From Planctomycetota bacterium (GTDB taxonomy: Bacteria > Planctomycetota > Phycisphaerae > FEN-1346): 64,000 nt of DNA. Where the stretch lies: the NCBI GenBank assembly GCA_030602705.1, contig JAUVZF010000005.1:2663-66662 (forward strand), written 5' to 3'. The notes beneath the pieces are model-generated. The model saw nothing but the letters and a program-made list of their open reading frames with translations. It had not been told where the DNA came from and searched no databases. The translations under genes were made by a program, and so were the position numbers. This document shows positions 5,115 to 49,594 of this stretch, one piece after another (position 1 is the stretch's first letter; every line of letters starts with the position of its first letter).

Positions 5115-5377
5115 AGTTACCCGCGGGGCTTGTCCCGCCGGGTCGAAACAGAGAACAGGGAGCAAGTCGATGCGCGGCCCGTACGGGCCGCGCTCGGCCC
5201 TCACGTTGTTACAAAGTCGTTACCCGCGCGGCGGGCGTCGTGTACGATACTGCTTGTGGAGAGCGACGTTGCGAGCCGGTGCGCGGGCAGTGTGTTGTGT
5301 GGTGGCGTTGAAGAAGTAGAATGGATTGATGCAGGCGCACGGGCATCCGCGCCAATTGCGTCCGGGGAGCCTGAAAC

Positions 5378-20494: not shown

Positions 20495-21901
20495 TCAACC
20501 GCCTTCGACGGACAACGGCGCAAACATCTCGTCCATCTCTCCTGCCAAATCGTCCTTGAGACTGCCGAGAACGGTCATGGAATGCGCCTTCCGATACAGG
20601 GAAACCAATTCAAGGTCGTCGTTGATGTTCGGCAGATTGATTATTCCGTGGTCCGGATGGAAGTAACTGTATTCTTCCCAGTTATCCGATCGGAGCCAGC
20701 CATTGCGCTTGCATTTGTCGTACAGATCGGTGCCTGGAAACGGGACGACAATGGAGGCAGTGCTGAACTCGAGGCCGAGGGTCTCGATCAGGTCAATGGT
20801 GGCCTCGATGTCCGCTCTCGTCTCTGTGGGGTAGCCGATCATGAAATTCCCCGTCGGCGTTATTCCAGCGTCGTTTGTCATCTGGACGGCCTTCTTTATC
20901 TGGGAAGGTTTGGTCCTCTTGCCACACTCATCCAGTATTCTCTGGCTGCCGAATTCAATTCCGTAGAATATGACTTGGCAGCCGGCTGCCTTCATTTCTT
21001 CAAGAATATCCTCCGAAACTGTGTCCACGCGGCTATCACAGTTCCAGGCAACCTTCCGGCTCAGGCCTCTTTCGATCATGCCCCGGCAAAGCGAGACGAG
21101 CCACTTCTTGTTCGCCGTGATCAGTTCATCGGTGAAGCGCACGATCCTGATCCCGTACACGTCGGCGATCTCGGCCAGTTCGTCGAGCACATTCTGCACG
21201 GACCTTCGCCGCAGGACCGGCCAGAATCGCGGAACGGAGCAGTAGTCGCAGTGGAAGGGACAACCTCTGCTGGCTGAGACCGCTGTGAACCGCCCCCGGC
21301 TCTTTCCCAACCTGGTCACGTAGAGGTGATTCGGCAACAGATCTCTTGCCGGGAAAGGCAGCGAGTCAAGGTCCTCGATAAACGGACGAGCTGGCGTAAC
21401 CACGACGTGGTCTCCGTCCTTGAACGTGAGTCCTTTCACCTTCTCGAGACTCCCGTCGCCGGAGAGCGCCCGAGCCAGTTCGACGATGGTGATCTCGCCC
21501 TCTCCCCTGACGCAGAAGTCAATGAACGGCTTCTCAATGAGTTCCCTGTGGCAGGGATGGACGTGCGCCCCTCCAAGAACGATCTTTGCTGGAGGATAGG
21601 CCGCCCTTATCTGCCTACAGGCGTCCAGGGCGCTCTTCAAGTTCGAGGTGAAAACGGTAAGGCCGACGAGGTCCGGCTGTGCCTCCGCCACCTGCTGGGC
21701 AAGTCTGTCATGGGGCATCCCGATTGATTTTGCATCCACGATCTCAACCCCGGCCCCCTGTGCCCTCAGTGCCGAGGCGAGATAAGCCAGCCCGATGGGC
21801 GGGAACTTCGAGCCGGTCCGGACCGCTTGCCGGATCACCTTTTCTTTGGTGATGTTGACCGAACGTCGTAGCGGGTCAACAAGAACGCACTTGAGGGTCA
21901 T
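20495..21901 (-). CDS. B12-binding-domain radical SAM protein.
   Basis: N-terminal cobalamin-binding Rossmann region (IGLAYLASALRAQGAGVEIVD...LVGLTVFT) followed by the radical-SAM cysteine triad SRGCPFHCDYCSVP. Confidence 0.85.
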   Translation of the reverse strand: MTLKCVLVDPLRRSVNITKEKVIRQAVRTGSKFPPIGLAYLASALRAQGAGVEIVDAKSIGMPHDRLAQQVAEAQPDLVGLTVFTSNLKSALDACRQIRAAYPPAKIVLGGAHVHPCHRELIEKPFIDFCVRGEGEITIVELARALSGDGSLEKVKGLTFKDGDHVVVTPARPFIEDLDSLPFPARDLLPNHLYVTRLGKSRGRFTAVSASRGCPFHCDYCSVPRFWPVLRRRSVQNVLDELAEIADVYGIRIVRFTDELITANKKWLVSLCRGMIERGLSRKVAWNCDSRVDTVSEDILEEMKAAGCQVIFYGIEFGSQRILDECGKRTKPSQIKKAVQMTNDAGITPTGNFMIGYPTETRADIEATIDLIETLGLEFSTASIVVPFPGTDLYDKCKRNGWLRSDNWEEYSYFHPDHGIINLPNINDDLELVSLYRKAHSMTVLGSLKDDLAGEMDEMFAPLSVEGG

Positions 21902-23875: not shown

Positions 23876-24301
23876 TCACCCCCTTTTCACGGAGCGCTGG
23901 GGGGCTACTTGCTGTTGGTTTCGCCTAACCCCGCGCCTGCTCTTCTCCGTTTTCGATTTCGTCTGCCGCCTCTTGTCCTTGACCTTCCGGGGGACGAAGC
24001 CTTCGCCCTGACAGTGCAGGCAAACAAGATTCTTATCAGTGCCGGCGCCTGTCCCGCCACAGACCTGACAGGTGTCGTAAGGCTTGTCCACGTACACGCT
24101 CTTACGGCCGTGGCAAACCGGGCATTCCGCCAAAGACGGCACGCCGTAGAAGTGCCCCAATCCGGTGCCTTTGCAGAATGCGCAAGGAAGTTTTGCCAGT
24201 TCCCGCACGGCTTCATGAGCGCCCCGCTTTCTCCCCTTCCCAGGCGCCTCGTTCGCAGCATTCTTTCGGACGTGTTTCGTTTTCACTGCTGTTCTTGCCA
24301 T
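23876..24301 (-). CDS. DnaJ-type zinc-finger repeat protein (paralog).
   Basis: Start at MARTAVKTKH. Repeats CAFCKGTGLG, CPVCHGRKS, CQVCGGTGAG, CLHCQGEGF, with a basic C-terminal tail. Confidence 0.6.
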   Translation of the reverse strand: MARTAVKTKHVRKNAANEAPGKGRKRGAHEAVRELAKLPCAFCKGTGLGHFYGVPSLAECPVCHGRKSVYVDKPYDTCQVCGGTGAGTDKNLVCLHCQGEGFVPRKVKDKRRQTKSKTEKSRRGVRRNQQQVAPQRSVKRG

Positions 24302-24459
24302 TTGCGTGATTTCCTCTCGCTCATTGAGCCGGACACTTGACGGGCATCCCATGCCGCATGCCCCGCCATGTAAGGGACACGCCACGCCTTGGCGCGCCCG
24401 ATGCCGAAGCCCTCAGGCTCGGCGACTGCACCGGTTCGCCGATAACCTCCCTCGCCGTC

Positions 24460-25949: not shown

Positions 25950-27308
25950 TCAAGCGAACTGCCGCAGTTGCTCCCTGAACTGGAATTCCAGGCCGGCCCT
26001 CTCGTATAGTTCGCGCAGTTGGGTATCCGTAATATGTTCGAGTTTGATAACGCCCTGCTTCAACTGGTAAGAGTAATACCGCCAGTCCGAGGTCCTCAGC
26101 AGGTTGTGCTCTTTGCAGTAATCGTAGAGCGGGGTGCCGGGGAAAGGAGTTACGATCGAGAAGCCGGCACTATCCAGACCGTGATCGATGGCAAGTTCCT
26201 TGGCGAAGTTGATGGTGTCCTCGACCGTTTCGACGGTTTCGGTCGGATACCCCATCATGAAGTAGCCGTAGGAGGAGATGCCGCTCTTTGCAGTCATTTC
26301 TACGGTCCGGCGAACCTGCTCTGTCGTGAACCCCTTCTTGCAAAGGTCCAGTATCCTCTGATTTCCGAACTCAATCCCGTAGAAGACCACCCGACAGTTG
26401 GCCTGGCTCATGGCGGCCAAGAGTTCCTCCGACATCAGGCCGACCCTGCCGTCGCAGGCCCAGGCGAGGTCCTGGAGGCCCCTGCGGACCATTCCCTCGC
26501 ACAGCGCCATTGCCCACCGGCGGTTCGCAAGGAGGAGGTCATCGAGGAAGCGGACATACGTAACGCCAAGGTTGTTGCGGATCTGTTCGAGTTCATCGAG
26601 CACGTCGTCCACCGACCGTCTCCGTTGCCGTCTGCCCCAAATGGCCGGCGCGTCGCAGAACGCGCAGCAATACGGACAGCCCCGAGACGCGAGCACCGGG
26701 CTGAAGGGGACGCCACCGGTCCACGAGCCTGTGTAGGCGGGATGCCGCAACAGATCGCGAGCCGGAAGCGGCAACGTATCCAAGTCCTGAACGAACGGCC
26801 TGTCGGGCGTTACATGGACCTGGCCGTCGCGCCTAAAAGTGATACCTGCCACATCGGCCGGGTTTGTGCCGTCCCGCAGCGCTCTGAGCAACTCGACGGC
26901 TGTCAGTTCGCCCTCGCCTCTTACGCAGAAGTCGACCGCGTCGTGCTCAATAACCGCCCGATGCTCAAAATGGACGTGCGGCCCCCCAAGGATCACCGTC
27001 GTTTCGGGGTCGAGGCGCTTTACTGCGGCCGCGATACGCACAGCACTGTGGATTCTGGCGGTGATCGCCGTTATACCGACGACTTCGGGGCGTTCTCTCT
27101 CCACCTCAGCCAGCACGTCGTCGCTTGACAGGCGCAGGGCTCTGGACTCGACTATTCCAGAATCGACACCGTGGGCCCGCAGTGCTGCGGCGATGTACAG
27201 AAGGCCGAGAGGCGGATATGCCTCGTGCATTTCGGTGGCGATCTCCTGATCGCCCCCGCAGGAGCCAGCGAACAACTCGTCCGGCGGGTCTATAAGGAGG
27301 CATTTCAT
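25950..27308 (-). CDS. B12-binding-domain radical SAM protein (second paralog).
   Basis: Cobalamin-binding N-terminal region plus radical-SAM cysteine triad SRGCPYCCAFCDAP. Same overall layout as 20495..21901. Confidence 0.85.
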   Translation of the reverse strand: MKCLLIDPPDELFAGSCGGDQEIATEMHEAYPPLGLLYIAAALRAHGVDSGIVESRALRLSSDDVLAEVERERPEVVGITAITARIHSAVRIAAAVKRLDPETTVILGGPHVHFEHRAVIEHDAVDFCVRGEGELTAVELLRALRDGTNPADVAGITFRRDGQVHVTPDRPFVQDLDTLPLPARDLLRHPAYTGSWTGGVPFSPVLASRGCPYCCAFCDAPAIWGRRQRRRSVDDVLDELEQIRNNLGVTYVRFLDDLLLANRRWAMALCEGMVRRGLQDLAWACDGRVGLMSEELLAAMSQANCRVVFYGIEFGNQRILDLCKKGFTTEQVRRTVEMTAKSGISSYGYFMMGYPTETVETVEDTINFAKELAIDHGLDSAGFSIVTPFPGTPLYDYCKEHNLLRTSDWRYYSYQLKQGVIKLEHITDTQLRELYERAGLEFQFREQLRQFA

Positions 27309-27851: not shown

Positions 27852-29627
27852 TCATTGCGCGCTCTCGACACTTTCGGGAATGCCGGCTCGCCGCGCGCCG
27901 GCTCCCGCACGTTCGGCGGCCTGGATTGCTGCCACCGCCTTGTCGGTCTCGGCTGCGAGGCGTTCGATGTCGCCGTCCGCGAGCAGCGTTTCGAGTGTAG
28001 CGTGTGCCTGTTGGATATCGGCCACACGCTCGTCCGGCAACTGCTCGCCGGCGTCGCCGGTTCCCGCCAGGATGGCGGCGCTTTCGCTGAGCGCGTTGCG
28101 CGCACGGGTGCGTGCCTCGAATTCGCGACGGCGCCGCCTGTCTTCGGCGTAGAACGCCTCGGCTTCTCTGAGCCGCGCCCGCACGTCCGCCTCTCCAAGG
28201 AGGGCGTCGCTGCGGATCTCGATGCTGCTGCACTCGTCGGTCCGCAGGTCTTCCGCCTCGACCCGAACAACGCCGTCGGCATCGACGAAGAACGTCACTT
28301 CGACGCGGCCTCGCCCGCGTTCGAGCGGGTGGATGTCGAGGTTGAAACTACCGAGCGAGACGTTCTCGCCGGCCACCTCGCGTTCGCCCTGAAGCACCTC
28401 GATGTTCATCGATTGCTGTCCGTCGGCGGCGTTGGTGAACAACCGGTTTGCGGAACAGGGAATCGTAGTATTGCGGCGGATGAGCCGCGAGAACAGCCTG
28501 CCCTCGGTCTTGATTCCCAGCGACAGTGGAATGACATCGACCAGGACGGCCCTTCGCGGCAGCCCCGACAGCATGCCCGCCTGCACCGCGGCCCCGATTG
28601 CCACAACCTCGTCGGGGTTGACCTTTGTGTAGGGTTCCTGTCGAAACATCTCCCGGACCAGCGCCCGCACGGCGGGCATGCGCGTTGAGCCGCCGACCAA
28701 CACCACGCGGTCGATCTGATCGACCTCCAGGCGAGCGTCCTTGAGGGCTTGGCGGGTCGGCCCGACCATGCGGCCGAGGAGGTGCCTGGTGGCCGCCTCG
28801 AATTCAGCGCGCCTCACGCGCGATTGCAGTTCGTGATGCCGGTCCGTCTCGGCGGAGGCGACCGTCAGAGAGACGAATGCCTCGGCGTGGTCGGAGAGGT
28901 CGCGTTTGGCCTTCTCGGCGGCGTCCAGGGCTCGGCGCCTCAGTCTCCGGTCTGCCAAGACATCAAAGCCGGACTGCCGGCGGAACCGTTCCGCCAGGAG
29001 CATGAGCATGACCTCATCCCAATCATCTCCGCCCAGATGGTTGTCGCCGTTGACCGCCTTGACCTCGAACAGGCCGTCACCGAGTTCCAGGATCGAGACG
29101 TCGAACGTGCCGCCGCCCAGGTCCCAGATCAAGACGGTTTGGAGGTCCTCCCGGTCGAGGCCGTAAGCCAGTGCTGCGGCCGTAGGCTCGTTGATGACGC
29201 GCAGGACCTGGAGTCCGGCCAGCCGCCCCGCCTCGAGAGTTGCCTGACGCTGCGTATGGGTGAAGTACGCGGGTACGGTGATGACGGCGCGGCGGATTTC
29301 GGTGCCGAGCCGGGCGGCGGCCCGGGCCTTGACACCTTCCAGTATGCGGGCAGAGACTTCCTGGGGTGTCATCCGGCGTCCGCCCAGAGAGACGACATGG
29401 GCCGTGCCCATGCGTCTCTTGATCGAGAAGACGGCGTCGTCCGGCTCCGCTTCGGCGCGGGCGCGGGCCGGGGCGCCGGCGAGCACTCTGCCGCCGGCAT
29501 CGACTGCGACGACGGACGGCAACAGCCGCTCGCCGGCAGCGTCTGTGATGACCTCCGCGCGCCGGCCGTCGTAGAGTGCCGCGACGGAGAACGTTGTCCC
29601 CAGGTCGATGCCGATGGCCTCATGCAC
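27852..29627 (-). CDS. Hsp70-family chaperone (DnaK-like), about 590 aa.
   Basis: IGIDLGTTFSVAAL, AVITVPAYFTHTQRQAT, VLIWDLGGGTFDVSIL. Start taken at the GTG (VHEAIGIDLG) at 29627, 6 nt after a perfect AAGGAGG; the listed upstream extension overlaps gvpJ. Confidence 0.85.
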   Translation of the reverse strand: MHEAIGIDLGTTFSVAALYDGRRAEVITDAAGERLLPSVVAVDAGGRVLAGAPARARAEAEPDDAVFSIKRRMGTAHVVSLGGRRMTPQEVSARILEGVKARAAARLGTEIRRAVITVPAYFTHTQRQATLEAGRLAGLQVLRVINEPTAAALAYGLDREDLQTVLIWDLGGGTFDVSILELGDGLFEVKAVNGDNHLGGDDWDEVMLMLLAERFRRQSGFDVLADRRLRRRALDAAEKAKRDLSDHAEAFVSLTVASAETDRHHELQSRVRRAEFEAATRHLLGRMVGPTRQALKDARLEVDQIDRVVLVGGSTRMPAVRALVREMFRQEPYTKVNPDEVVAIGAAVQAGMLSGLPRRAVLVDVIPLSLGIKTEGRLFSRLIRRNTTIPCSANRLFTNAADGQQSMNIEVLQGEREVAGENVSLGSFNLDIHPLERGRGRVEVTFFVDADGVVRVEAEDLRTDECSSIEIRSDALLGEADVRARLREAEAFYAEDRRRRREFEARTRARNALSESAAILAGTGDAGEQLPDERVADIQQAHATLETLLADGDIERLAAETDKAVAAIQAAERAGAGARRAGIPESVESAQ

Positions 29628-29880
29628 GGATGGCCTCCTTCGGCTCCGGTGTTCTGCGGGCGCGTTCCCATGCGCGGATGTTCTCATCCCACTGGGTGAA
29701 TATGCCGTAGTTGAGCATGGTTTCCATGCCGGCCAGGGCCGCCCGCAGTTTCACGCCCAGCAGCGGAATGCCCGCCACCGAAATGACGACGTCGGCGTCG
29801 ATGATCAGTCCCTTTTCCAGGACGCGATCCAGCAGATCGACGAGTGTCGCTTTCGCCGCGAATTCGGGAACGTCGTTCAT
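29620..29880 (-). CDS. Gas vesicle protein of the GvpA/J/M family (GvpJ-like).
   Basis: ATLVDLLDRVLEKGLIIDADVVISVAGIPLLGVKLRAALAGMETMLNYG matches the GvpA-family core LxDxLDRxLDKGxVIxAD...GIELL. Confidence 0.8.
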   Translation of the reverse strand: MNDVPEFAAKATLVDLLDRVLEKGLIIDADVVISVAGIPLLGVKLRAALAGMETMLNYGIFTQWDENIRAWERARRTPEPKEAIRA

Positions 29881-29896: not shown

Positions 29897-30895
29897 CTAT
29901 GTAAAACTGTAAGGCGGCCACGGGCCCGTCACGCGGACCGAGAGGCCCTTGCCGGTGCAGTAATCCGTGAAGGCCGCCCTCAACGCCTCATCCGTGCCGT
30001 TCTCGACCAGGCAGGAGAGGTTCGCCACCATGCGCAGGTTGTCTTCGCCTGTCTTGAGTTTGCCGACCGACACCTCGACCGCGTGTCGGCCGGCCAGATC
30101 GAACGCCTCGCGGAAAACGGTCTCGGCACGTTTCAGGATCTGTTCCCTCACCCGCTTCTCCAACTCCTGCCTCTGGAAGTAGAGGGCGCCCTCGGATTTG
30201 CCGGTCAGGCCCTTTTTGAGTTCGACAACCTCCGGGCAGGTCGCCATCACGTCGGGCGTGGCCGATTCCACGTCCAGAAAGACCTGGACGCCGTACTCCT
30301 GCCGGCGTCGCACCCGGTCGGCTTTCTGGAGCAGTACGTCGCCCTCATCGTGGAGCCACCTTCGGAGGTGATCCGCGGCATCCGCACGGTCCTTTCCGGA
30401 GACCATCGTGTCGAACGCCATCGGCAGGACGGCCGCATAGCGCTGGCATGCTTCCGCCACCACCGCCTGATGGCGGATGACCCACTTCTCAACGGTTTCC
30501 TTGTCTTTCGAGGCATACGGCTTCGCCGCGCACTCATGGACAACGGCCACCAGGCCATTCCCAGGAACGGCAAACACTTCGGCGTCGTCGATGCCGGCGG
30601 TTTCAAACGGGATGGGCTCTCCCACCGTCACGGCATAGACGTAGAGGGCCCGCTGATGGGTGTCCTGGGCGTTTTCCGTTCTCGGCCGTGGGGATGCCTG
30701 TCTCGCCGGCCGCCCTTGGGGACCCGTTGCCGGCCCGCCCTCGACGAGGGAAAGCAGGGCGTCGACCTCGGCCGGGTCCGTCTGGACGCCGGCCGCGCCC
30801 AGCAGCGTGCTCAGGTTCTCACGTGTCACCGGTTTACCGGCCGATCTCAGCGTTGCTGCCGCATAGATCAGGCTCGCGTCGTCTCTTTTGTTCAT
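29897..30895 (-). CDS. GvpF/L-family gas vesicle protein with an N-terminal extension resembling the ribosomal P-stalk (aL12/P1/P2) N-terminal domain.
   Basis: The C-terminal two-thirds is GvpF/L-like (ALYVYAVTVG..., ending VTGPWPPYSFT). N-terminus LIYAAATLRSAGKPVTRENLSTLLGAAGVQTDPAEVDALLSLVEGG versus archaeal P1 [47 protein letters not shown]. Start overlaps the gvpK 3' end by ~60 nt, so the start is uncertain. Confidence 0.7.
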   Translation of the reverse strand: MNKRDDASLIYAAATLRSAGKPVTRENLSTLLGAAGVQTDPAEVDALLSLVEGGPATGPQGRPARQASPRPRTENAQDTHQRALYVYAVTVGEPIPFETAGIDDAEVFAVPGNGLVAVVHECAAKPYASKDKETVEKWVIRHQAVVAEACQRYAAVLPMAFDTMVSGKDRADAADHLRRWLHDEGDVLLQKADRVRRRQEYGVQVFLDVESATPDVMATCPEVVELKKGLTGKSEGALYFQRQELEKRVREQILKRAETVFREAFDLAGRHAVEVSVGKLKTGEDNLRMVANLSCLVENGTDEALRAAFTDYCTGKGLSVRVTGPWPPYSFT

Positions 30896-31214
30896 CGTTC
30901 ACCGCTCTGTTGGCCGCCTCCGTCACGCCCGGCGCGACGAGGGTCCGCAGGGCGTCGTCCACCAGGTCGTCGAGGCCTTCGCGGACGTTGGCGACCGCTT
31001 CTGAAATGCCCTGCTCCCGTTTGATCTGCTCGATGGCCTTGTCGAGTTCGATAAACGCGTTGCCGAGCCGCTCGACCTCCTCTTCGGTAAGGCTGCCGCC
31101 TTCCACACGGCGCATGGCCTGGAGGCGCAGGGCGTCTCGAATGATCTCGATAAGCGCGAGGACGAGCCCCAACAGGCCGGCCTTGAGTTTTTTCTCGTCG
31201 ATATTGATTGCCAC
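30834..31214 (-). CDS. gvpK: Gas vesicle protein GvpK.
   Basis: LLGLVLALIEIIRDALRLQAMRRVEGGSLTEEEVERLGNAF is the GvpK signature. Confidence 0.8.
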   Translation of the reverse strand: MAINIDEKKLKAGLLGLVLALIEIIRDALRLQAMRRVEGGSLTEEEVERLGNAFIELDKAIEQIKREQGISEAVANVREGLDDLVDDALRTLVAPGVTEAANRAVNDEQKRRREPDLCGSNAEIGR

Positions 31215-31241: not shown

Positions 31242-31634
31242 TTAGGCCTTCATCGCCTCCGCGCTGATCCAACCGCACCACGGGCAGCCCTGCTCGATCA
31301 ATTCCGTACGCGCCATGCGCTTGCCGCACTGCGGGCAGGTGTCCTTGGCCTCCATTGCGTCCTTCCATGCTGGCGTCTGGAGGTTGGTGCCGGAGGGGAA
31401 CTCAAGGCCGTACTGGGCGGCGGTCTCAAACGATGCCAGCGCCGCCCGGATCCTGATGCCCAGCAGTTCCACGCCGACAAGGTCAATCGTGATATCGGCG
31501 TTGATCACGAGGCCCTTGTCGAGGATACGGTCAACGAGATCGACAAGGGTGCCGCCCTGTCGCTGGGGGGCCTGTTGCTGGAGGGCCTGTTCAGGAGCCA
31601 CGAATTCTCCTTCCCTTCGCCTTGGCAAGCGCAA
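31242..31634 (-). CDS. GvpA/J-family gas vesicle protein fused to a C-terminal C4 zinc ribbon.
   Basis: GvpA-family core [48 protein letters not shown], then ...CPQCGKRM...CPWCGW at the C-terminus. Confidence 0.7.
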   Translation of the reverse strand: MRLPRRREGEFVAPEQALQQQAPQRQGGTLVDLVDRILDKGLVINADITIDLVGVELLGIRIRAALASFETAAQYGLEFPSGTNLQTPAWKDAMEAKDTCPQCGKRMARTELIEQGCPWCGWISAEAMKA

Positions 31635-32625
31635 CCATTTCCCTGCCGAGATCGGTGGTGTGGTATCGGCGTCCCCCTAGCGCGGCCAGAAGCCCCTTGT
31701 CGCACAGTTTCTTGCGCAGCATTTGCACGTAGCCGTCGGTCAGACGGGTACGGTACGGGACATTGGGGGCCTGGCCGGCGTCTTCCGCCTCACAGTAGGC
31801 TCGGAGGACCTGTAGTTCCGTGGCGGTGGGTGACGCCCGCGTTTGAGGGGCCCCGCCGGTGTCCGAACGGTGTGGAGTGACCACGCCCTTGCCTTTGCAC
31901 CCCTTACAGTACAAGTTAGTACCGGGCTCTTTGCCCCTTCCCCGACAGGTGGCGCACGTGATCGCCCCCTCATCAACCTCGACGTATCCGCGCCCTCGGC
32001 AGACCAGACAGGTCACATAGTTCCTGGCCTCTTTCGAACCGCGGCCCTTGCAGAAAGCGCACACGACCACAGGCGGCTTAAGCACGATCGCTCCCGTGCC
32101 GTGACAGACGGGACACCTGGTGCCGGCCGGGCGTTCGCCCTTGCCCTTGCAGAAGGAGCAAAGCAGGTGGCTCTCGTACAAGAGTTCAGCCGGCCCCGAA
32201 GTCCACTTCTTGACAGTGCCCTTTGGGCTGGACCCGCCACTGCCGGCCACCCTGATCGCATTCCACAGATCAGGTTCTTGGCCCGGCTTTGCAAAGGACC
32301 TGGCTTGCGGCGAGCGACGAACGCCACGGCCCATAACCTTCCAGGGCTCGCCTTCCCGGAAGGAGACGGGCTGGGCCCCTGTGTCACCGCCGGCGGGCGC
32401 CAGCACATCCCCATTGCCGCCAACCGCCTGTTTACCTTTTTGGGTGACACAGAATCCCCGATTGGGCTTGAAAGCCACATAATCGGCCTTGACGAGGTCG
32501 ATGCACAGCCCGAGGGCCTCTTCGACGGTCGTACCGATTCTCTCGCTGACAGCGCCCGTGGATGCATGTCCATCCAACGCAGCCACGGCCTCCAGTGCTT
32601 GTTGTTCGATCGTGCTCGCACTCAT
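31591..32625 (-). CDS. wHTH, DnaJ-type zinc-finger repeats, wHTH three-part protein.
   Basis: N-terminal wHTH, central CSFCKGKGE/CPVCHGTGA/CAFCKGRGS/CLVCRGRGY/CATCRGRGK/CKGCKGKGV, and C-terminal ...TDGYVQMLRKKLCDKGLL. Start probably at MSASTIEQ with SD GGGAGA. Confidence 0.6.
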   Translation of the reverse strand: MSASTIEQQALEAVAALDGHASTGAVSERIGTTVEEALGLCIDLVKADYVAFKPNRGFCVTQKGKQAVGGNGDVLAPAGGDTGAQPVSFREGEPWKVMGRGVRRSPQARSFAKPGQEPDLWNAIRVAGSGGSSPKGTVKKWTSGPAELLYESHLLCSFCKGKGERPAGTRCPVCHGTGAIVLKPPVVVCAFCKGRGSKEARNYVTCLVCRGRGYVEVDEGAITCATCRGRGKEPGTNLYCKGCKGKGVVTPHRSDTGGAPQTRASPTATELQVLRAYCEAEDAGQAPNVPYRTRLTDGYVQMLRKKLCDKGLLAALGGRRYHTTDLGREMVALAKAKGRRIRGS

Positions 32626-32739
32626 GTTTACCGTCTCCCTTGCCATGAGGTGTTGGCTCAGTTCCAGGCTGACTTGGGCCGGTTTTCATCGGCGCCGCGA
32701 GGCTGCAACGGCCCGCGTGCCGCGTTCGGCCGCGGCGGT

Positions 32740-35109: not shown

Positions 35110-35880
35110 TTACCCCTTACGCCGTTTTCTCTTGGCAGGCGATTTTTTCTTCGCCGGCTTGGCAGTTTTCGCGGCAGGTTCTTCGCCGGCGGCCTCGATC
35201 TGCGCTTTCAGGCGGCGGAACTCGGCCTGGGTGATGTCGCCGGTCTCCAGTTTCATCCGCATGGCGAGCAGTTGCTCGGCCGCGCTCCGTTTCTGTCTTG
35301 ATGCGGCATCGCGAACGCCCTTGGCGATTCGATGCACTAAGCGCGGCCCGCCCAGCACCGGCTGGCTCAGGAACCAGGCCAGCGCGCTGATCAGGCCTAT
35401 CTCTTTGGGTCGGCCGGGGCGGAAAGGCGTGTCCCGGAACTCGGCCGGCCAGTTCGCGCCCCGGGTCCCGAAGTGCCGCGCAAGCGTAATCCGGCCTGTA
35501 ACATTCGCCGGCGACGGGAGACGCCTGCTGATCGATGCGGCGGGAAACTGGCCGGCACCCGGCAGATACCGGCAGGTACGAACCTTCGACACTGCGGCCG
35601 TGGGAGGCAAGGCCGCTGCGGCGATCGTGGGTTCGGCCTTCTTCGCGGCCGCGCGGGGTGCCGCGGCTCTGCGCGCCCCCTCGCCGTCGCCTCCGGAGGG
35701 TCTTTTCTTCGCGCGCGCGGCCTTCTTCGCGGCCGCGCGGGGGTCCACGGCGCTGCGTGCCCCTTCGCCGTCGCCTCTGGGAGGCTTCTTCTTCGCACGC
35801 GCGGTCCGCCTCGCCGCCGTGCGGGTCTTGACGTTCCTGCGGGCGGTCTTGGCGCGGTCTGTGGAAATCTTTCTGATCAT
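35110..35880 (-). CDS. Basic, low-complexity N-terminus joined to a GvpG-like C-terminal domain.
   Basis: C-terminus LISALAWFLSQPVLGGPRLVHRIAKGVRDAASRQKRSAAEQLLAMRMKLETGDITQAEFRRLKAQIEAA parallels GvpG (LLLxPVxG...W...I......LL.LQ...GEISEEEF). N-terminus is a KKA/RAA-rich repeat. Confidence 0.5.
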   Translation of the reverse strand: MIRKISTDRAKTARRNVKTRTAARRTARAKKKPPRGDGEGARSAVDPRAAAKKAARAKKRPSGGDGEGARRAAAPRAAAKKAEPTIAAAALPPTAAVSKVRTCRYLPGAGQFPAASISRRLPSPANVTGRITLARHFGTRGANWPAEFRDTPFRPGRPKEIGLISALAWFLSQPVLGGPRLVHRIAKGVRDAASRQKRSAAEQLLAMRMKLETGDITQAEFRRLKAQIEAAGEEPAAKTAKPAKKKSPAKRKRRKG

Positions 35881-37928
35881 CCTTTTCTCCCCACGTCAAA
35901 CAAGATCGACTCGATGTCCCTGAGGGCGTCCAGCCCTGCAATCGGCTGGGGCAACAGGGGCACCGAGACGACGCGCAGACCGGGATGTGCCTTGCGAAAC
36001 CTGGCCCGGTGCTGCTCCTGTACCTTTCTGGTGCGTCGGCAGAAGGCGCACCGGTTCTTGGGGATCATCTTGTTGAAGACGACCGAATGGACACCGACGC
36101 CCAGTCCGGAGAGCCGTTCGATGAGGCGCTGCGACTCGCGGACGGCCATCTTCTCGGCGACCGTCACAACGACCGATTCGGCCTGCGCGGGGTCCGTCAG
36201 GATGGCCTGAAAACGGCGCAGGCCGCGGGCCAGATCGACCATCTCCTCGCCGGCGGTGTGCCCGTACTTGAGCAATACTTTGAAGATGGCTCGCAGCCAG
36301 GCATGGGCCAGTTCAGGCAGTTCGAGAAACCGCAGCGCATGGCCGGTAGGCGCCATGTCGAAAACGAACAAGTCGTACTGCCCGCCGTCGGCCAGGTCCA
36401 TCACGCTCTTGAGGAACATGATCTCATCGACGCCGGGAGGAGAAAGCGACGCGAACTGCTGCATCGATTCCTTTTCGAACCGGACTTGCACTCCGCTGGA
36501 GGTGAGATTGTCGAAGATGCCGGTAATCGAATCGCCGTAACGCTGCCGGAAACGCTCGAACATCACCTCCGGATCCTGCTCGCAGGCGAAGAGGTTCTCG
36601 GCCGCCACGGACACGATCTCAGGACCGACGGGCGAACCGAGGCAATCGGCCAGGGAATGGGCCGGGTCCGCCGAGAACACGAGGACCCGCTTGTCGGGGT
36701 GGGCACCGGCCAGGCGCAGGCCCGTGGCGGCGGCCAGCGATGTCTTGCCCACGCCGCCCTTGCCCGCGAAGAACGTGAAACGAACGCCCTCGGTGAGCAC
36801 CAGTGGTTCGCCCGGCTTGCACCGGACGGGACGCGTCTCCTTCCCTTGCTTTGGCACCGATCGGACGAACGGATTGACCGAGGTAGGTTCGTCGGCGAGG
36901 CCCTCCAGCACGCCCACAACGCGGTTCAGGCCCTCTTTGCCGTGCACCTCGCCGGCAAACAAGGGGACAGGCAGCAATTTCCGGGGTGACAGCGCCGTCG
37001 TAGCGGCGAGCACCGATGATTGCCAGTGATTTCTGGCGGCACAGAACGCACACTTGGCCGGCTCGACCAACTGATTCACGATCAGTCGTTTTACATGGAT
37101 TCCCAGAGCGGCCAGTTCTTGCAGAAGGCGCTCTGTCTCGGCAAGGGCCATCGGCTCGGCGATCGTCACCGGAACGAATTCCGCCCGGTCACGCGCCGTG
37201 AACATTTGCCTGGCCCTCTCAATCCTCCGATCAAAGTTGATCAGGAACCGCTCCGCGGCGTCAACCGGCGGACGCTTCCGACCGCGGAAATGACGTTTCA
37301 GATAGCGGAACTTGCGCTGCATGATGTCCAGGGCCTTCAGCCAGCGCTTCATCTCCCCCGGCATGGTCAGGAAGCACAGCGCGTGCCCGGTCGGCGCGGT
37401 GTCCACCAGGATTAAACCCCATTGGCCCTCGTCCAGCAGGCGTGCGATCTCCACGACCGCCATCACCTCGTCCACGCCCGGAAGCGTCAGGTCGAAGAAG
37501 CCATCGATGTCGGAGCGGTCCAGGAGCGTCCCCCGATCGAGCAGGGTGCGCAAGGCTTCGCCGTTCTCCCTGGCAAAGGCGTCCGCCAGGCTCGCCGCGT
37601 CGAGTTCCATCGCCCACAGGCCGTCGGCGCCCCGGACGGGAACCGCCTCCGCGCCGACGGTCTGGCCGAGGCTGTCGGCCAGCGAGTGGGCCGGGTCGAC
37701 AGACAGGACGAGAATCCTGCGACCGTCGCGCGAGGGGCGGCGGGCGATGGCGAGTGCGGCGGCGGCTGCCAGCGTCGTCTTGCCCACACCGCCCTTGCCG
37801 CCGAAGAACACGAGTTGTGCCCCGGCCCATTCGTCGAGAAACCCCTTCGGCGGGGCGACCTGCGGCCGCGCTGCCGGCGGCCGCGCCGGCGGCGCCGTCG
37901 GGATCGCTTGTGCCATGGACACAGCCAA
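35877..37928 (-). CDS. ArsA/Get3-family ATPase, internally duplicated into two halves.
   Basis: Two P-loops (FFGGKGGVGKTTLAAAAALA and FFAGKGGVGKTSLAAATGLRLA), two DPAHSLAD(S/C)LG motifs, and two A-loops (VDTAPTGHALCFL, FDMAPTGHALRFL). Confidence 0.8.
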   Translation of the reverse strand: MAVSMAQAIPTAPPARPPAARPQVAPPKGFLDEWAGAQLVFFGGKGGVGKTTLAAAAALAIARRPSRDGRRILVLSVDPAHSLADSLGQTVGAEAVPVRGADGLWAMELDAASLADAFARENGEALRTLLDRGTLLDRSDIDGFFDLTLPGVDEVMAVVEIARLLDEGQWGLILVDTAPTGHALCFLTMPGEMKRWLKALDIMQRKFRYLKRHFRGRKRPPVDAAERFLINFDRRIERARQMFTARDRAEFVPVTIAEPMALAETERLLQELAALGIHVKRLIVNQLVEPAKCAFCAARNHWQSSVLAATTALSPRKLLPVPLFAGEVHGKEGLNRVVGVLEGLADEPTSVNPFVRSVPKQGKETRPVRCKPGEPLVLTEGVRFTFFAGKGGVGKTSLAAATGLRLAGAHPDKRVLVFSADPAHSLADCLGSPVGPEIVSVAAENLFACEQDPEVMFERFRQRYGDSITGIFDNLTSSGVQVRFEKESMQQFASLSPPGVDEIMFLKSVMDLADGGQYDLFVFDMAPTGHALRFLELPELAHAWLRAIFKVLLKYGHTAGEEMVDLARGLRRFQAILTDPAQAESVVVTVAEKMAVRESQRLIERLSGLGVGVHSVVFNKMIPKNRCAFCRRTRKVQEQHRARFRKAHPGLRVVSVPLLPQPIAGLDALRDIESILFDVGRKG

Positions 37929-39262: not shown

Positions 39263-41560
39263 TCACCGATTCTCCTCTTCCAGCAGGACTTCCTCCCGTG
39301 GTGCGTCTGACAGACCGTGTCTGAACCGTCGTGGCGGCGGCTTTCTTGGCGGATGCGCCTCAAGAACCGGACGTTGCCATGCACGCTCGTGATGATGGCC
39401 GGCGTGAGTCGGGCAAGGCGGGGCATCGGCCGCGCCGCCGCCGTAGAGTTCGGCGCCCATGCGGTCGAGGGCGTCCGGTCCCCGCACCTCTTGAGGAAAC
39501 TGGCGGACCGCCGTTACGACGCAGCCGATGGACGAGGCGAAGTCGGCGATCTCATCGACGCAAGCGAGTTGCTGGCACCGTTTGGCGGCGCAGAACGCGC
39601 AGTCCGTCGCGGGCGCCAGGAAGTTGCAGACGATGCGTGCTACGGGGATTCCGGCCGCCGTCACCGTCTCGAGCATCCGCTGCATCTCGAGTTTGCCCAT
39701 GGCCTCGGCGATCGTGACGGCGACCAGTTCCGTTTGGGCCGGGTCGGTCAGGGCGGCGTGCATCGTCTTGACGGCGTTGGTTGAGCGCACCATTCGCTCC
39801 GCAAGCGTGGCCAGGTGCTCGACGGGGCGCCTCTGTTGGTACTTGAGGATGGCCCGGTAGGTTACACGGAGCCAATCCTTGATTAGTTCCGGGAAGGCCA
39901 GGAGTTTGAGCATGTGCCCGGTGGGCGCCGGGTCGAGCACGTAGAGGTCGAACCGGTCGGCCTCGGTGAAGTCAAAGAGACGCTCCATCACGAGCACTTC
40001 CTCGACGCCCGGCGGGTAACTCTTGACGTACTCGAGCAGGGTGCCGCGGTCGAACTTGATCCGGTCCAGGTTCATGACGCCGATTTCGTGGCTTTCCCAG
40101 GCCTCGAAGGCGGCGTTGATGTTCTCGACGTACTCGGCACGGAACTTCTCGTAGAGCGCCGCGGCGTCCAGTTCCAGCGCGGTCAGGTTGTCGCGGCCGG
40201 GAACCGCGGTCAGGGAGTCGCCGATCTCCAGGTCGAGCGAGTCTCCGAGCGAATGCGCCGGGTCGGTCGAGACCACGAGAACTCGCTTCTCGGGGTAACG
40301 CCGCGCCAGGCGCAGCGCGGTGCTTGCCGACACGGACGTCTTGCCGACGCCGCCCTTGCCGGCGAAGATGAGGAACCGTTTGCCCGCTTCCACGGCCAGT
40401 TCGCTGGGAGGGGCGATTGAGCCGGACACGCTCACGCGGTTCGGCCCGGCCGGCTGCGGGGGCATCGGCTGCACGGAATCATTCTCGCCGGCCAGGACCT
40501 GGCCGTAGCGCACCAGGGCTTCCTGTCCGCGTATCTCTTCGGGGGAAAGTGGAACCTGGAGGATGCGGCGGGGAGCGAACTGCTCCTGAATCTGCTTCAG
40601 ATACGGCGTTTGCCCTTCCGCCTGCGACCGGCAGAAGGGGCAGTCCGGGTCGGCACGTCGCACGCGGTTGACGATCACGTTGCCGGCGGCAATGCCCTGG
40701 CGGTCGAGCGCCCGGGCGAGGCGCACCGTCTCGGCGACGCCCATCTCCTCGGGGATGGTCACCATGACGAACTCGCATCGCGCGGGGTCGGTGAGGAGTT
40801 TCCCGACAAACTCCATGTGCTTAATCAATTTGCTCAGGAACTGCGGCACTCCCCGTCCGCCCCTTTCCTGGCCGGGAATATTGAACAGACCCAGGCCCTG
40901 CAGGCCGGCCGAGGTCCGGTGATACTTGTTGAACGACCTCTTGAAGAGCGTGACCCAGCGAGCGTATTTTTCGGGCATCGTCAGCAGCCGCAGAGTGTGG
41001 CCCGTCGGCGCGGTGTCGATGACCACCAGGTCGCAGCGTGTGGAGGGGAGCGGATCGTGCGGGATGCCGCGCTGCAAGTACTCCGCCACGGCGGCGAAGA
41101 TCATCAGGTCTTCCATGCCGGGCAGACGGAAGGCGAGGAAATCGCGGATATCCGCCTGGTTGGAGAAGACGGTGCCGCGGGCCATTTGCTTGAGGTGCTT
41201 GCCGTACCTGCGTTTGAAGGTCGCCAGCAGGGAGGGCGGATCGACCTCGACCGCCGAGAGGTTGGGGACACCGCGCACGCGAACGATCTTCGGCCCCACG
41301 GACTGGTCAAGACTGTCGCCGAGCGAGTGGGCCGGATCGGTCGACATGATCAGCACCTGGCGGTCGGGCATGGCTTGGACCAGGCGCAGAGCGGTGGCGG
41401 CCGACGAGGTCGTCTTGCCGGTTCCACCCTTGCCGCCGAAGAACAGCAGTTGCAGAGAAGACGGGGCGCTCAGGAAACTCGGCGCCGCCTGCTTGCCGCC
41501 GCTATCCTGCTGGACAGCCTGTTGCTGTGTGGCTTCGGCTAGTAACGCTTGCGCGCTCAT
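39263..41560 (-). CDS. ArsA/Get3-family ATPase, internally duplicated (second paralog, 765 aa).
   Basis: FFGGKGGTGKTTSSAATALRL / STDPAHSLGDSL / IDTAPTGHTLRLL in half 1, and FAGKGGVGKTSVSASTALRLA / STDPAHSLGDSL / LDPAPTGHMLKLL in half 2. Confidence 0.8.
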   Translation of the reverse strand: MSAQALLAEATQQQAVQQDSGGKQAAPSFLSAPSSLQLLFFGGKGGTGKTTSSAATALRLVQAMPDRQVLIMSTDPAHSLGDSLDQSVGPKIVRVRGVPNLSAVEVDPPSLLATFKRRYGKHLKQMARGTVFSNQADIRDFLAFRLPGMEDLMIFAAVAEYLQRGIPHDPLPSTRCDLVVIDTAPTGHTLRLLTMPEKYARWVTLFKRSFNKYHRTSAGLQGLGLFNIPGQERGGRGVPQFLSKLIKHMEFVGKLLTDPARCEFVMVTIPEEMGVAETVRLARALDRQGIAAGNVIVNRVRRADPDCPFCRSQAEGQTPYLKQIQEQFAPRRILQVPLSPEEIRGQEALVRYGQVLAGENDSVQPMPPQPAGPNRVSVSGSIAPPSELAVEAGKRFLIFAGKGGVGKTSVSASTALRLARRYPEKRVLVVSTDPAHSLGDSLDLEIGDSLTAVPGRDNLTALELDAAALYEKFRAEYVENINAAFEAWESHEIGVMNLDRIKFDRGTLLEYVKSYPPGVEEVLVMERLFDFTEADRFDLYVLDPAPTGHMLKLLAFPELIKDWLRVTYRAILKYQQRRPVEHLATLAERMVRSTNAVKTMHAALTDPAQTELVAVTIAEAMGKLEMQRMLETVTAAGIPVARIVCNFLAPATDCAFCAAKRCQQLACVDEIADFASSIGCVVTAVRQFPQEVRGPDALDRMGAELYGGGAADAPPCPTHAGHHHERAWQRPVLEAHPPRKPPPRRFRHGLSDAPREEVLLEEENR

Positions 41561-41578: not shown

Positions 41579-42484
41579 CTATGCGCCACGCAGGGCCGTC
41601 CACCGCAGGCCGTTCTCCCAAGCGTCTGACGGCACCGGAGCGGAGGCGGTGGCCGGCGGCCGGTCCACCTGGTTCTGTTCGAGGGCTTCAGGTCCGGCAG
41701 TACGGTCATCTTTCTCTACAGTCTCGATCCCGCCCCGCTTGCGAACTACCTGCAAGCCGGTGTCGGTGATCTGACATCTGCGGGAGCCGGCTCCGCGCAA
41801 CAACCCCTTCTTGATGAGCGACTTCTGGAGCAGGTTGACGTACGCTGGTGTGTGGCGGGCTTCCCTGGACAGAACAATCCGTTCGCCGAGAGACGCACGG
41901 GCGTAAAGTCGCAGGATCTCCAGTTCGCTCGCGAGGACGGCCGGGAGGTGGGCGGCAGTCGAACCCGCCGCGACCCTTCTGGCCGCCGCGCTCGCGGTGG
42001 CCGCTCTACGGTTGCCGGTTGAAGGCTGCTCGCCTATGCGGAAGGTAAAGGCAGGCCGCGGCACCCGTCCCCCGACCGACACGGCTTTTGTCTCTTCGCC
42101 CCGCGGCTTCACGCTCACGACGCCGGCGCCGCGGCAGGCGATGCACGTCAGGCGCGAGCCTTGCTGTCGGCCCGTGCCGCGGCAAGATGCACACTTCTCC
42201 ACGGGCGGCTTAACCGTGACGTAACCTTTGCCGCGGCAGGCGTTGCAGGTGACGTTGCCTCGGGGTCGTTCTTCGCCTCGGCCCTTGCAGAGGGCACACC
42301 TGACGGCCGGCGGACGGATCTCGACCGTGCCTTTGCCCCGGCACACCGAGCACTTCGAGCCGGCCGGCTTCTCGCCCTTGCCCCGGCAGAAGGCGCAGGC
42401 CTGAACGGGGTCCTCGATGATCGCATAGGCCGCGCCGGTTCCCCGGCTGCTGTCTTTGTCGTCCTTCACTGGACGCCATTGCAT
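41579..42484 (-). CDS. DnaJ-type zinc-finger repeat protein with a C-terminal wHTH.
   Basis: CAFCRGKGE/CSVCRGKGT/CALCKGRGE/CNACRGKGY/CASCRGTGR/CIACRGAGV, then ...PAYVNLLQKSLIKKGLL. Start at MQWRPV after GGAGG. Confidence 0.6.
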   Translation of the reverse strand: MQWRPVKDDKDSSRGTGAAYAIIEDPVQACAFCRGKGEKPAGSKCSVCRGKGTVEIRPPAVRCALCKGRGEERPRGNVTCNACRGKGYVTVKPPVEKCASCRGTGRQQGSRLTCIACRGAGVVSVKPRGEETKAVSVGGRVPRPAFTFRIGEQPSTGNRRAATASAAARRVAAGSTAAHLPAVLASELEILRLYARASLGERIVLSREARHTPAYVNLLQKSLIKKGLLRGAGSRRCQITDTGLQVVRKRGGIETVEKDDRTAGPEALEQNQVDRPPATASAPVPSDAWENGLRWTALRGA

Positions 42485-42619
42485 GATGTGGCCTCCGCAC
42501 AATCCGGCGATCCTCTCCGGCGGGGCATGGCAGGTCCGGCACAGGCCGGTTGGTCAGGCCTGGAGCGGTCCCGCCGTCACGGCCTGTCCGCGCTATGCCA
42601 ACCATCCAGCCGGAGGCGG

Positions 42620-43190: not shown

Positions 43191-43439
43191 CTAAACGGGG
43201 GCGCCTTCTTCCTTGAGTTTTCGGATGCGTTCGATCTCCTCGAGCAGGTCGGCCTCTCGCCGCTCGTACTCCTCCTCGGAGACCTCGCCTAGTTCGAGGC
43301 GCATCTGGAGTTCGAGCAGTTGCTGTCGGACCGAGTTTTCGTCGGTCATCTCCGCGTACGCGGCTTCCCCGAGCTTCTTGGAGACCCAGACCGGGACCCT
43401 GATTGGCGCGAGCAAGATGTCGTCTAGCACGAAAGCCAT
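43191..43439 (-). CDS. gvpG: Gas vesicle protein GvpG.
   Basis: MAFVLDDILLAPIRVPVWVSKKL...QLLELQMRLELGEVSEEEYERREADLLEEIERIR is the GvpG pattern. Confidence 0.75.
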   Translation of the reverse strand: MAFVLDDILLAPIRVPVWVSKKLGEAAYAEMTDENSVRQQLLELQMRLELGEVSEEEYERREADLLEEIERIRKLKEEGAPV

Positions 43440-43452: not shown

Positions 43453-44205
43453 TCATTCCCAGGTCACCACGACCTCAACGAAGTTCAGGGGGGGAATCGG
43501 GCCGACGTACTTGAGGCGCACCCGGCCGTTCGTTTCGCCCTCCAGCGCCTCGACGCACCCGTCGAACTCCTGCTCGTGCCTGCGTTCCACGAGGAACGAC
43601 GCGTTGAGGATCATGGGGTCGCCGAAGACGTCGTTCACTTTGCGGTCGAACCAATGGCCGTCGAAGCGGCGGAGGATGTGCCTGGCTTCCCTGGCTTTCT
43701 TGCGCTCGAGGGCGTTCTTGACCATCTCTCCAAGGCGGACGCCGTCGGCCGGCGTGACGGCTGTGCGGCTGCTGGCGTGGGCGCGGGCGGCCTTGATGCG
43801 GGGGTTTTCGTCGACGATTTCGGCGAAGATGGCCGGCATGTCGGTCCACAGGACTTTGAGGCCCAGTTCGGCCTTGTCCGCCACCATTTCGAGCAGATCG
43901 CACAACTCGTCGTGTCGGGCGAGCAGGACTTTCTCAACGATCTGGTCCCGATGGTTGGCAATGCAGCCAAAGCGGACCGGCAGCATCGGCCAGCGCGCCA
44001 TCGCCGCCTCCATGACGCGCTGGTGCGCGATCACGCTGGCGCGGGCCACGTCGTAGCGGTCGGCCTTGCAGCGGCTGACAACGGCGGCGATATCGCCGTG
44101 CGGCAGCATCTCGACCGGCTCGCCGTTTCCATCGATGCCGGGCACGTCCAGGACGGCCGGTTCGGCTGTGCCGACGATGGCGTAGATGTAGAATCCCCCT
44201 TCCAT
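43453..44205 (-). CDS. gvpF: Gas vesicle protein GvpF/L family.
   Basis: FYIYAIVGTAEP...AAVVS..., VLPVRFG, and C-terminal YVGPIPPLNF. Confidence 0.8.
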   Translation of the reverse strand: MEGGFYIYAIVGTAEPAVLDVPGIDGNGEPVEMLPHGDIAAVVSRCKADRYDVARASVIAHQRVMEAAMARWPMLPVRFGCIANHRDQIVEKVLLARHDELCDLLEMVADKAELGLKVLWTDMPAIFAEIVDENPRIKAARAHASSRTAVTPADGVRLGEMVKNALERKKAREARHILRRFDGHWFDRKVNDVFGDPMILNASFLVERRHEQEFDGCVEALEGETNGRVRLKYVGPIPPLNFVEVVVTWE

Positions 44206-47419: not shown

Positions 47420-47535
47420 GACGACTTTCCTGTTGCTCTCCCGCCGCTCGCCCGGTAGGCGCACGCCGCGGATGGGTATGCCGGCGCCGTCGCTTGCGTT
47501 CCTCGAGCCCGCCGCCTCAGGAGACCGGCAGTAAC

Positions 47536-48126
47536 CTATTCGCCTTTCTTCTTGAGGACGATCTCGAGGATGCCGTTCTCGTAGGAGGAGGTGACGTTCT
47601 CCTCGTCGACGACTGCGGGGAGCAGGACTTCCTTCTGGTACTTCCTCTTGCCCTCGGCCGAGAGCGTGAGCATGTCGCCCTTGACCTCCACGTGGATGTC
47701 GGCTTCCTGGATTCCCGGCAGTTCCGCGATGGCCCGGATGGTGTCGCCTTCCTCGAAGACGTCGACGATCGGCTCGCGCATTTCCTCGACGACCGGCCCC
47801 TTGGGGGTCTTCTTGATGTTGCCGAACGTCTCGACCTTCGGCTTGCCTCCGGCCATGGTGCGGACCGTGAAGCCGTAAACGCCTTTGATGTCCCTTCCGC
47901 GCCGCACGCCGGGAGGGATACCCCCGACGCGGAACTCGCCGGTCTTGCTCAGTTCCTCGCCCTTCTCGGCGAGTTCGGTGGCCTTGTCCACGAGGCTGCT
48001 GAGACCATTGATGAGCCCGCCAAGGCCAAGGCCCTTGAAGATGCCGCCAAGGTCAACCACGGGCGTGGCATCTTCCTCTGCGGCTTCCTCTTTCTTGTCC
48101 TGGTCTTTCTCTTCTTTTTTCGCCAT
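47536..48126 (-). CDS. Hsp20/alpha-crystallin-family small heat-shock protein (GvpH-like position).
   Basis: Start at [11 protein letters not shown] segment ...[34 protein letters not shown]...[13 protein letters not shown]. Confidence 0.75.
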
Positions 48127-48200
48127 GGTTCGATTCCTCTCTCGGTTTGTCGGCCCGGCGCCGCTTCCGATTGCGGAGGGTCTGCCCCGCGGCGCCTTGT

Positions 48201-49469: not shown

Positions 49470-49594
49470 GGTCTGCCTCCGGGTCTGGAGAGGCGCCTTC
49501 CTCGGGAAGCCAGGCGAACCGCCGGTGCCATCTCTATGGTTTTGATGGGGCACATGTGCGGGTCCCCGAACGGCTTCCGAGGAAGGCTCCCTCT

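Follow-up and report, generated by a model that had tools for sequence, protein, structure and literature searches.

Why would a protein that helps to build gas vesicles begin with a domain like that of the ribosomal stalk? The question is raised by a stretch of 64,000 nucleotides from a Planctomycetota bacterium (contig JAUVZF010000005.1 of assembly GCA_030602705.1), referred to here as the window. Within it, a minus-strand gene at 29897..30895 encodes the GvpL orthologue of a gvpJ-K-L-M nucleation module, part of a bacterial gas-vesicle cluster of planctomycete type. The product is GvpL, not a ribosomal P protein, and it carries a domain homologous to the N-terminal domain (NTD) of the archaeal and eukaryotic stalk protein P1. 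The domain probably acts as a dimerisation module.

The body of the protein belongs to the GvpF/L family. The Pfam family PF06386 (GvpL_GvpF) aligns with residues 83-331 over positions 1-243 of a 245-position model (E 5e-54; 184.3 bits, cutoff 23.6). The best NCBIfam match is GvpL (NF045778; E 9.6e-43; 146.8 bits, below the equivalog cutoff of 200), and the two GvpF/L paralogues encoded in the same cluster score better on the GvpF model. The full-length AlphaFold 2 (AF2) model has a mean predicted local distance difference test score (pLDDT) of 84, and most of the body exceeds 90. Foldseek matches this model to GvpF (6L5D_B, E 2.9e-14, target-normalised TM-score 0.77; 4QSG, E 6.4e-13), i.e., to the two-domain alpha/beta fold of GvpF.

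This fold and the GPWPPYSF end are shared with known GvpL and GvpF proteins (e.g., GvpF of Microcystis, 4QSG, and of Anabaena, 6L5D, and GvpL of Halobacterium salinarum and Bacillus megaterium). The location of the gene is also shared, after gvpK and before gvpM/S in a J-K-L-M module, and published interaction maps show binding of GvpL by the products of this module. The difference lies at the N-terminus. No counterpart of the 82 extra residues, which make up the P1-like domain and a linker, was found in the reference GvpL/GvpF forms searched. Alignments to the GvpL_GvpF model of Pfam and to the GvpL model of NCBIfam cover the body alone (from residue 83 or 94), and solved GvpF chains comprise 237-244 residues. 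The linker differs in length and sequence between homologues, with large indels at alignment columns ~85-165. The first-pass annotation had described a flexible Pro/Gln-rich linker followed by a canonical GvpF/L body, and both the low model confidence in the linker (Table 1) and the PF06386 match bear this out. A short leader, MNKRDDA, precedes the first helix. It is variable in the alignment of close homologues, or missing where these begin MSLIYAAL.

The first-pass annotation had also noted that residues ~8-55 resemble archaeal P1 (aP1), and searches of several kinds agree. The NCBIfam model TIGR03685 (archaeal P1) aligns its positions 4-46 with residues 10-52 of the single sequence (E 4.4e-7). 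A phmmer search of all PDB sequences finds 3a1y_A, the P1 NTD of Pyrococcus horikoshii (E 1.5e-6), in a gap-free alignment of 45 residues; the identity of the GvpL NTD to P. horikoshii P1 is 42 %. The similarity becomes stronger with profiles. One made from the NTDs of 12 close homologues retrieves 3a1y_A with E 1.6e-11 and eukaryotic P1 chains with E 6.5e-5 to 2e-4, and hhalign of 20 GvpL NTDs against 20 aP1 sequences gives a probability of 98.7 % (E 3.6e-16, 46 columns). We also searched 1.84 billion representative proteins with a hidden Markov model (HMM). Most of the best 150 matches are proteins of ~100 amino acids aligned over columns 9-53 versus 3-47, and those inspected are archaeal P1 ending GLGALFG. 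A word-indexed search of proteins for the NTD profile gave mainly archaeal P1, listed as '50S ribosomal protein P1', and one stand-alone protein discussed below, with no additional fusions. Helix 1 (YAAL.L) is the best-conserved stretch common to GvpL NTDs and aP1; residues 9-54 of the window protein read LIYAAATLRSAGKPVTRENLSTLLGAAGVQTDPAEVDALLSLVEGG.

The predicted fold leads to the same assignment. An AlphaFold model of residues 1-60 contains three helices (mean pLDDT 79). Its input alignment held GvpL NTDs only and no P1 sequences, which makes the fold match to P1 more independent. In a Foldseek comparison of this monomer model with the PDB, P1/P2 chains occupy ranks 1 to 7, with 3a1y_A at the top (TM-score 0.71-0.74). 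Residues 8-52 are thus shown, by sequence and by predicted fold, to be homologous to helices 1-3 of the P1 NTD of archaea and eukaryotes.

One profile falls short. PF00428, the Pfam family of the stalk proteins, scores 13.9-15.4 bits with the full protein and with residues 1-80, under its cutoff of 28.1. The match begins with query residue 23 at position 2 of this model, and in genuine aP1 residue 17 sits at the same position. The model therefore omits helix 1 and the GvpL NTD can score over helices 2-3 alone, which keeps it below threshold. The score to TIGR03685 (27-30 bits) is likewise under the curated cutoff of 100.

Other parts of P1 are missing from the protein. Helix 4 (the GVNIDEAI region of P1) was not found: the alignment stops at ..LSLVEGG, Pro/Gly-rich disorder follows, and the AF2 models have three helices. 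The acidic hinge and the C-terminal factor-binding tail (..GLGALFG in aP1; ..DDMGFGLFD in eukaryotes) are also absent; the linker is Pro/Gln/Arg-rich and the protein ends GPWPPYSFT. Thus, the protein has helices 1-3 in common with P1 (aP1 3A1Y chain A; eukaryotic P1/P2), but its working end is the 250-residue GvpF/L fold, and the host is a bacterium. Its scores below the PF00428 and TIGR03685 thresholds, and the lack of helix 4, of the tail and of P-protein size, are the reasons for not regarding it as a ribosomal P protein.

The missing tail bears directly on the suggestion, made in the first-pass annotation, that the domain might draw in translational GTPases by mimicking the P-stalk. One point speaks in favor of this, namely that the NTD is homologous to P1. 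According to two papers (PMC4267659, PMC5887453), GTPases bind the conserved C-terminal tail of P1 rather than its NTD, and GLGALFG has no equivalent in this protein. Furthermore, the EF-Tu and EF-G of bacteria work with L7/L12, whose structure differs from that of the P proteins (PMC3794596), and a P0 anchor is not expected in a bacterial host. We consider such recruitment very unlikely.

A more basic doubt is whether the domain exists as a P1 relative at all. The similarity could be due to chance or to a generic helix-loop-helix of EF-hand type, or the true start codon could lie downstream, in which case the NTD would never be made. The weak PF00428 score, faint EF-hand and calmodulin matches and the overlap of the gene start with gvpK could be read in this way. 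The NTD profile does touch eukaryotic EF-hand repeat proteins and calmodulin. We rejected an EF-hand identity, as these matches are weak and partial, limited to columns 20-53 (calmodulin E 3e-3 to 0.4, versus 1.6e-11 for P1). The P1 matches are better by orders of magnitude and cover all three helices. P1/P2 chains lead the fold searches, in which calmodulin has a probability of ≤0.25, and no DxDxDG-type calcium-binding loop is present in the NTD sequence.

The start codon can be assessed by comparison among relatives. In the list of open reading frames, the start is the first ATG, GTG or TTG past the upstream in-frame stop, which here is the ATG at 30895. No in-frame ATG, GTG or TTG occurs between this codon and helix 1. 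Inside the domain there is a single alternative in-frame start, GTG at residue 23, and its use would remove helix 1. The NTD is present in >20 homologues. It is kept in 10/10 close homologues (P0001-P0010; 57-85 % identity), of which seven begin exactly MSLIYAAL (aP1 begins MEYVYAAL). It is also kept where the bodies are merely ~30-40 % identical (P0030, P0138, P0159, P0181, P0187, P0196, P0207). In a comparison with L001, a syntenic JGI contig, the ratio of nonsynonymous to synonymous substitution rates is alike in NTD (~0.33), linker and body, at about 0.3, although the counts are small and uninformative beyond indicating coding sequence.

The overlap with the 3' end of gvpK, estimated at about 60 nt in the first-pass annotation, measures 62 nt, with the two genes in different frames. 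Contig L001 has the identical ATG and the identical 62-nt overlap, while loci L002, L005 and L006 show the usual 4-nt overlaps of ATGA type. The long overlap is therefore a local quirk of translational coupling and gives no cause to doubt the start. Conservation of the NTD in close and distant homologues, and of the same ATG in L001, supports the upstream ATG as the real start and the NTD as a translated domain, as far as can be judged from sequence comparison. The earlier worry about a downstream start can be set aside, and we give the idea of an artefact hardly any credence.

How widespread is the fusion? The domain had been called very rare in bacteria. This needs qualification, as about ten clusters of GvpL proteins (at 50 % identity) bear the NTD (P0006, P0030, P0088, P0098, P0138, P0159, P0181, P0187, P0196, P0207), one of which is archaeal (P0207, on contig L004). 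The same fusion is thus present in other genomes, with carriers in several bacterial lineages and in at least one archaeon, and its distribution among GvpL proteins is patchy. Contig L004 is identified as archaeal by RadA (above the equivalog cutoff), Hef, an Sso10a-family protein and an archaeal Hsp20. Other carriers have bacterial-type regulators beside them: a sigma-54 activator in the window, a sigma-70 ECF factor in L001 and HisKA_3/GerE in L005. For the window, the sigma-54 activator and the names of homologues ('Candidatus Brocadiae bacterium' for P0005, and 'Planctomycetota bacterium') indicate a bacterial, planctomycete-like host. The fusion gene comes after gvpK in L001, L002, L004, L005 and L006. 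Carriers thus belong to two domains of life, as would fit a horizontal spread of the fusion along with gvp clusters. A further protein, P0064, has a degenerate NTD that matches the NTD profile with E 0.011. GTDB species genomes were scanned with the single protein and again with the NTD alignment, and neither scan gave a confirmed relative.

The archaeal carrier raises the possibility that the fusion arose in an archaeon as a tether to the ribosome. The NTD would then heterodimerise with native aP1 or bind aP0, so that GvpL sits at the ribosome and receives hydrophobic Gvp proteins as they emerge. The copies now in bacteria would be remnants of a transfer, their role reduced or altered. That P1 is native to archaea, the level of identity to P. 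horikoshii P1 and the gene content of L004 are in keeping with this idea. However, most of the examined carriers look bacterial, and the NTD is well conserved in them, which points to a role that does not depend on the ribosome. The lack of helix 4 is a further objection. We regard a ribosome tether as improbable.

What, then, does the domain do in bacteria? We infer that it is probably a dimerisation module with a non-translational role, which would turn the GvpL hub bivalent. At its N-terminus, this GvpL family has acquired a three-helix domain of P1 type, 45 residues long. In our proposal, the domain would still do what it does in P1, namely self-associate by means of helices 1 and 2. GvpL would thereby become a flexibly tethered dimer with the layout of a stalk protein (dimer head, flexible hinge and working end). 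A bivalent hub would have higher avidity for GvpJ, GvpK and GvpM/S and, via these, for GvpA. Alternatively, it could link two assemblies that are just forming while gas vesicles are being seeded.

The proposal builds on published properties of both protein families. P1/P2 dimerise by way of the NTD, whose helices 1, 2 and 4 form the interface, with helix 3 outside (PMC3794596). GvpL of H. salinarum attracts all other accessory Gvp proteins (PMC7688916), and GvpL of B. megaterium interacts strongly with GvpS, GvpK and GvpJ, the proposed gas-vesicle seeders (PMC11445434). These two sources also describe GvpL from haloarchaea and B. megaterium as necessary for gas-vesicle formation and as binding GvpJ, GvpK and GvpM.

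Several observations point to oligomerisation: the conservation of helix 1, heptad-like segments, coiled-coil-looking in sequence, that P0207, P0098 and P0138 insert directly after the NTD, and tandem NTDs in other non-ribosomal proteins. The last group consists of P0094 and P0103, in which tandem Ribosomal_60s-type NTDs accompany a protein-kinase domain, and P0118, in which they accompany a zinc ribbon. In each of them, as in GvpL, a non-ribosomal protein begins with a reused P1 NTD. These three differ from GvpL in having tandem copies, in keeping helix 4, in their other partner domain, and in scoring at or near the PF00428 threshold (49.6, 37.3 and 27.0 bits, respectively; cutoff 28.1). They are probably archaeal, judging from their sequences. 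A further observation that fits self-association of the NTD is that another GvpF of the cluster has its own adaptor-type addition, a J-domain-like C-terminus. Bacterial L7/L12 offers a functional analogy only (N-terminal dimeriser, flexible hinge and C-terminal functional domain), as it has an unrelated fold (PMC3794596) and no similarity in sequence was found.

Some points weigh against the dimer. The structure predictions are of monomers only. Helix 4 forms part of the interface of the free P1/P2 dimer, and its loss makes the stability of a GvpL dimer uncertain; the groove that it normally covers may take another helix instead. In a neighbour-joining distance tree of the GvpL bodies (without bootstrap), NTD-bearing and NTD-less proteins are interleaved, and no separate NTD gene was found in the NTD-less loci L008 and L009. 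Together, these two results indicate that the NTD, which close relatives of the protein lack, is an optional accessory, dispensable for core GvpL function. Locus L007, by contrast with L008 and L009, does have a separate NTD copy, the only one among these loci. Here a stand-alone P1-NTD-like protein is encoded straight after gvpK, and an NTD-GvpL fusion follows further downstream (4807-5787). Either the module has been split or duplicated here, or the stand-alone protein is left over from a rearrangement. The protein could signal hetero-association instead of simple homodimerisation.

The same features allow a role as a docking adaptor, in which a single NTD or an NTD dimer would grip an amphipathic helix in a Gvp protein or in a cluster-encoded chaperone and so anchor one or several GvpL molecules on a scaffold. 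Dimers of aP1 bind the spine helices of P0, and modelling of the P0 complex treats helix 4 apart from helices 1-3 (PMC3794596). Absence of helix 4 from the GvpL NTD could leave the groove open for such a helix. The stand-alone protein of L007 and the paralogous GvpF with its J-domain-like, HPD-bearing C-terminus, encoded in one cluster with an Hsp70, are also compatible with docking. However, we identified no spine-like partner candidates, and no genes confined to NTD-bearing loci in a comparison of seven loci by eye. A docking adaptor is compatible with dimerisation, so it does not exclude a bivalent GvpL; as an explanation for the NTD we find it possible, though rather unlikely.

A broader scenario can be drawn from these elements, although we offer it as speculation with low odds. 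The P1-type NTD would be a portable 'stalk' module that works off the ribosome. GvpL dimers that grip a spine-like helix in a Gvp protein or chaperone would form stalk-like arrays, which display several GvpL bodies on flexible tethers at the nucleation site. Archaeal carriers would dock on the ribosomal P-stalk and couple translation of GvpA-family proteins, which are extremely hydrophobic, to their capture, and the bacterial copies would have been acquired horizontally from archaea.

The gas-vesicle cluster around the gene extends over about 28 kb of the minus strand (Table 1). Its J-K-L-M segment, with gvpL straight after gvpK and ahead of gvpM/S, has an order known in haloarchaeal gvp operons. 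The cluster further encodes GvpO.

Table 1. Positions of gvpL, its parts and the accompanying genes in the window, with the stand-alone NTD protein of locus L007 in the last line (numbered on its own contig)
Feature	Coordinates	Strand	Basis or remark
gvpL orthologue, 332 aa + stop (P1-like NTD, disordered linker, GvpF/L body)	29897..30895	-	ORF list, Pfam PF06386, NCBIfam NF045778, AF2
Variable leader MNKRDDA, residues 1-7, ahead of helix 1	30875..30895	-	Alignment; pLDDT <50 for residues 1-6
P1-stalk-like three-helix domain, residues 8-52 (helices about 9-18, 25-34, 41-52)	30740..30874	-	Helices 1-3 of aP1 NTD, without helix 4
Pro/Gln/Arg/Ala-rich disordered linker, residues 53-82	30650..30739	-	pLDDT <50 for residues 53-78 (AF2)
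GvpF/L body, residues 83-332, C-terminal end GPWPPYSFT	29900..30649	-	PF06386 over residues 83-331; Foldseek to GvpF
Overlap of gvpK 3' end and gvpL 5' end, 62 nt, different frames	30834..30895	-	Coordinates
gvpK, upstream neighbour, probably translationally coupled to gvpL	30834..31214	-	Pfam GvpK E 1.6e-19
gvpJ-like, GvpA-family core + C-terminal CxxC...CxxC zinc ribbon	31242..31634	-	Pfam Gas_vesicle E 1.9e-15; NCBIfam best halo GvpJ E 7e-27
gvpM/S-like, downstream neighbour	29620..29880	-	Pfam Gas_vesicle E 1.7e-16; NCBIfam best halo GvpM E 2e-28
gvpG, adjoining the GvpF paralogues	43191-43439	-	
GvpF paralogue	43453-44205	-	
GvpF paralogue with HPD-bearing C-terminal extension	44208-45227	-	
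GvpN-like AAA_5 ATPases, duplicated pair at cluster edge	48564-49553; 51063-52088	-	
CDC48	45227-47464	-	
Hsp20	47536-48405	-	
Hsp70	27852-29687	-	
ArsA ATPases (two)	35877-37928; 39263-41560	-	
DnaJ-type CXXCXGXG zinc-finger proteins without J domain (three)	23876-24385; 31591-32646; 41579-42502	-	
Radical-SAM gene, 468 aa, cluster edge	20495-21901	-	Pfam B12-binding + Radical_SAM
Duplicate of the radical-SAM gene, 452 aa, cluster edge	25950-27308	-	Called radical SAM from sequence only
Pro-rich repeat protein, 230 aa	33061-33753	-	No family matches
'YSTG' protein, 92 aa	32740-33018	-	No Pfam matches
'YSTG' protein, 83 aa	34305-34556	-	
Stand-alone P1-NTD-like protein of L007 (P0126), 84 aa, straight after gvpK	3109-3363	+	E 5e-17 to GvpL-NTD profile

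Several genes of the cluster have features of their own. The zinc ribbon of the GvpJ-like protein, seen as weak matches to Pfam zinc-ribbon families, is unusual for a GvpA-family protein. The genes for DnaJ-type zinc-finger proteins are interspersed with those for ArsA, CDC48 and Hsp20, which makes this an unusually chaperone-rich gas-vesicle cluster. The N-terminal region of the second zinc-finger protein in Table 1 resembles a winged helix by eye. The listed start of the Hsp70 reading frame overlaps the gvpM-like gene by 68 nt. Since the Pfam Hsp70 domain begins only at residue 24 (..IGIDLGTT..), the genuine start may lie further downstream.

The second GvpF paralogue has a C-terminal extension of ~95 amino acids with an HPD motif (..MRRFHPDTDPADP..). 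It is J-domain-like, with a sub-threshold match to Pfam DnaJ (E 1.8e-4), and relatives of this protein on other contigs are annotated as GvpL_GvpF plus DnaJ (PF06386+PF00226). The extension and the presence of an Hsp70 gene in the same cluster suggest that a pairing of the GvpF J-domain with Hsp70 may handle gas-vesicle proteins.

Three genes of the cluster encode proteins with repeats. One encodes ~20 tandem Pro-rich repeats of eight residues (P-x-P-[LVI]-K-[DP]-Y-[TKR]; 24-nt period in the DNA), followed by a C-terminal zinc ribbon. On either side of it are genes for two paralogous proteins with repeated 'YSTG' motifs.

The fusion is a solid finding: a conserved and previously unremarked combination of domains that will be surprising to specialists on gas vesicles and on ribosomes, and whose function we infer. 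In the literature, we found no paper that links GvpL/GvpF with ribosomal stalk proteins and none of relevance on PF00428 in bacteria. Standard annotation misses the NTD because of its sub-threshold Pfam score and because NCBI naming goes no further than the family (e.g., 'GvpL/GvpF family gas vesicle protein' for P0005); the precomputed Pfam annotation of all homologues is PF06386 only.

The P1/P2-type NTD is usually thought to be exclusive to the archaeal and eukaryotic stalk. It occurs in bacteria as well, and is reused in GvpL, in protein kinases and in zinc-ribbon proteins. GvpL is the proposed hub of the gas-vesicle seeding complex. A natural GvpL whose presumed dimerisation head is well understood and can be taken off its flexible tether would provide a direct handle on whether the valency of GvpL matters for nucleation.

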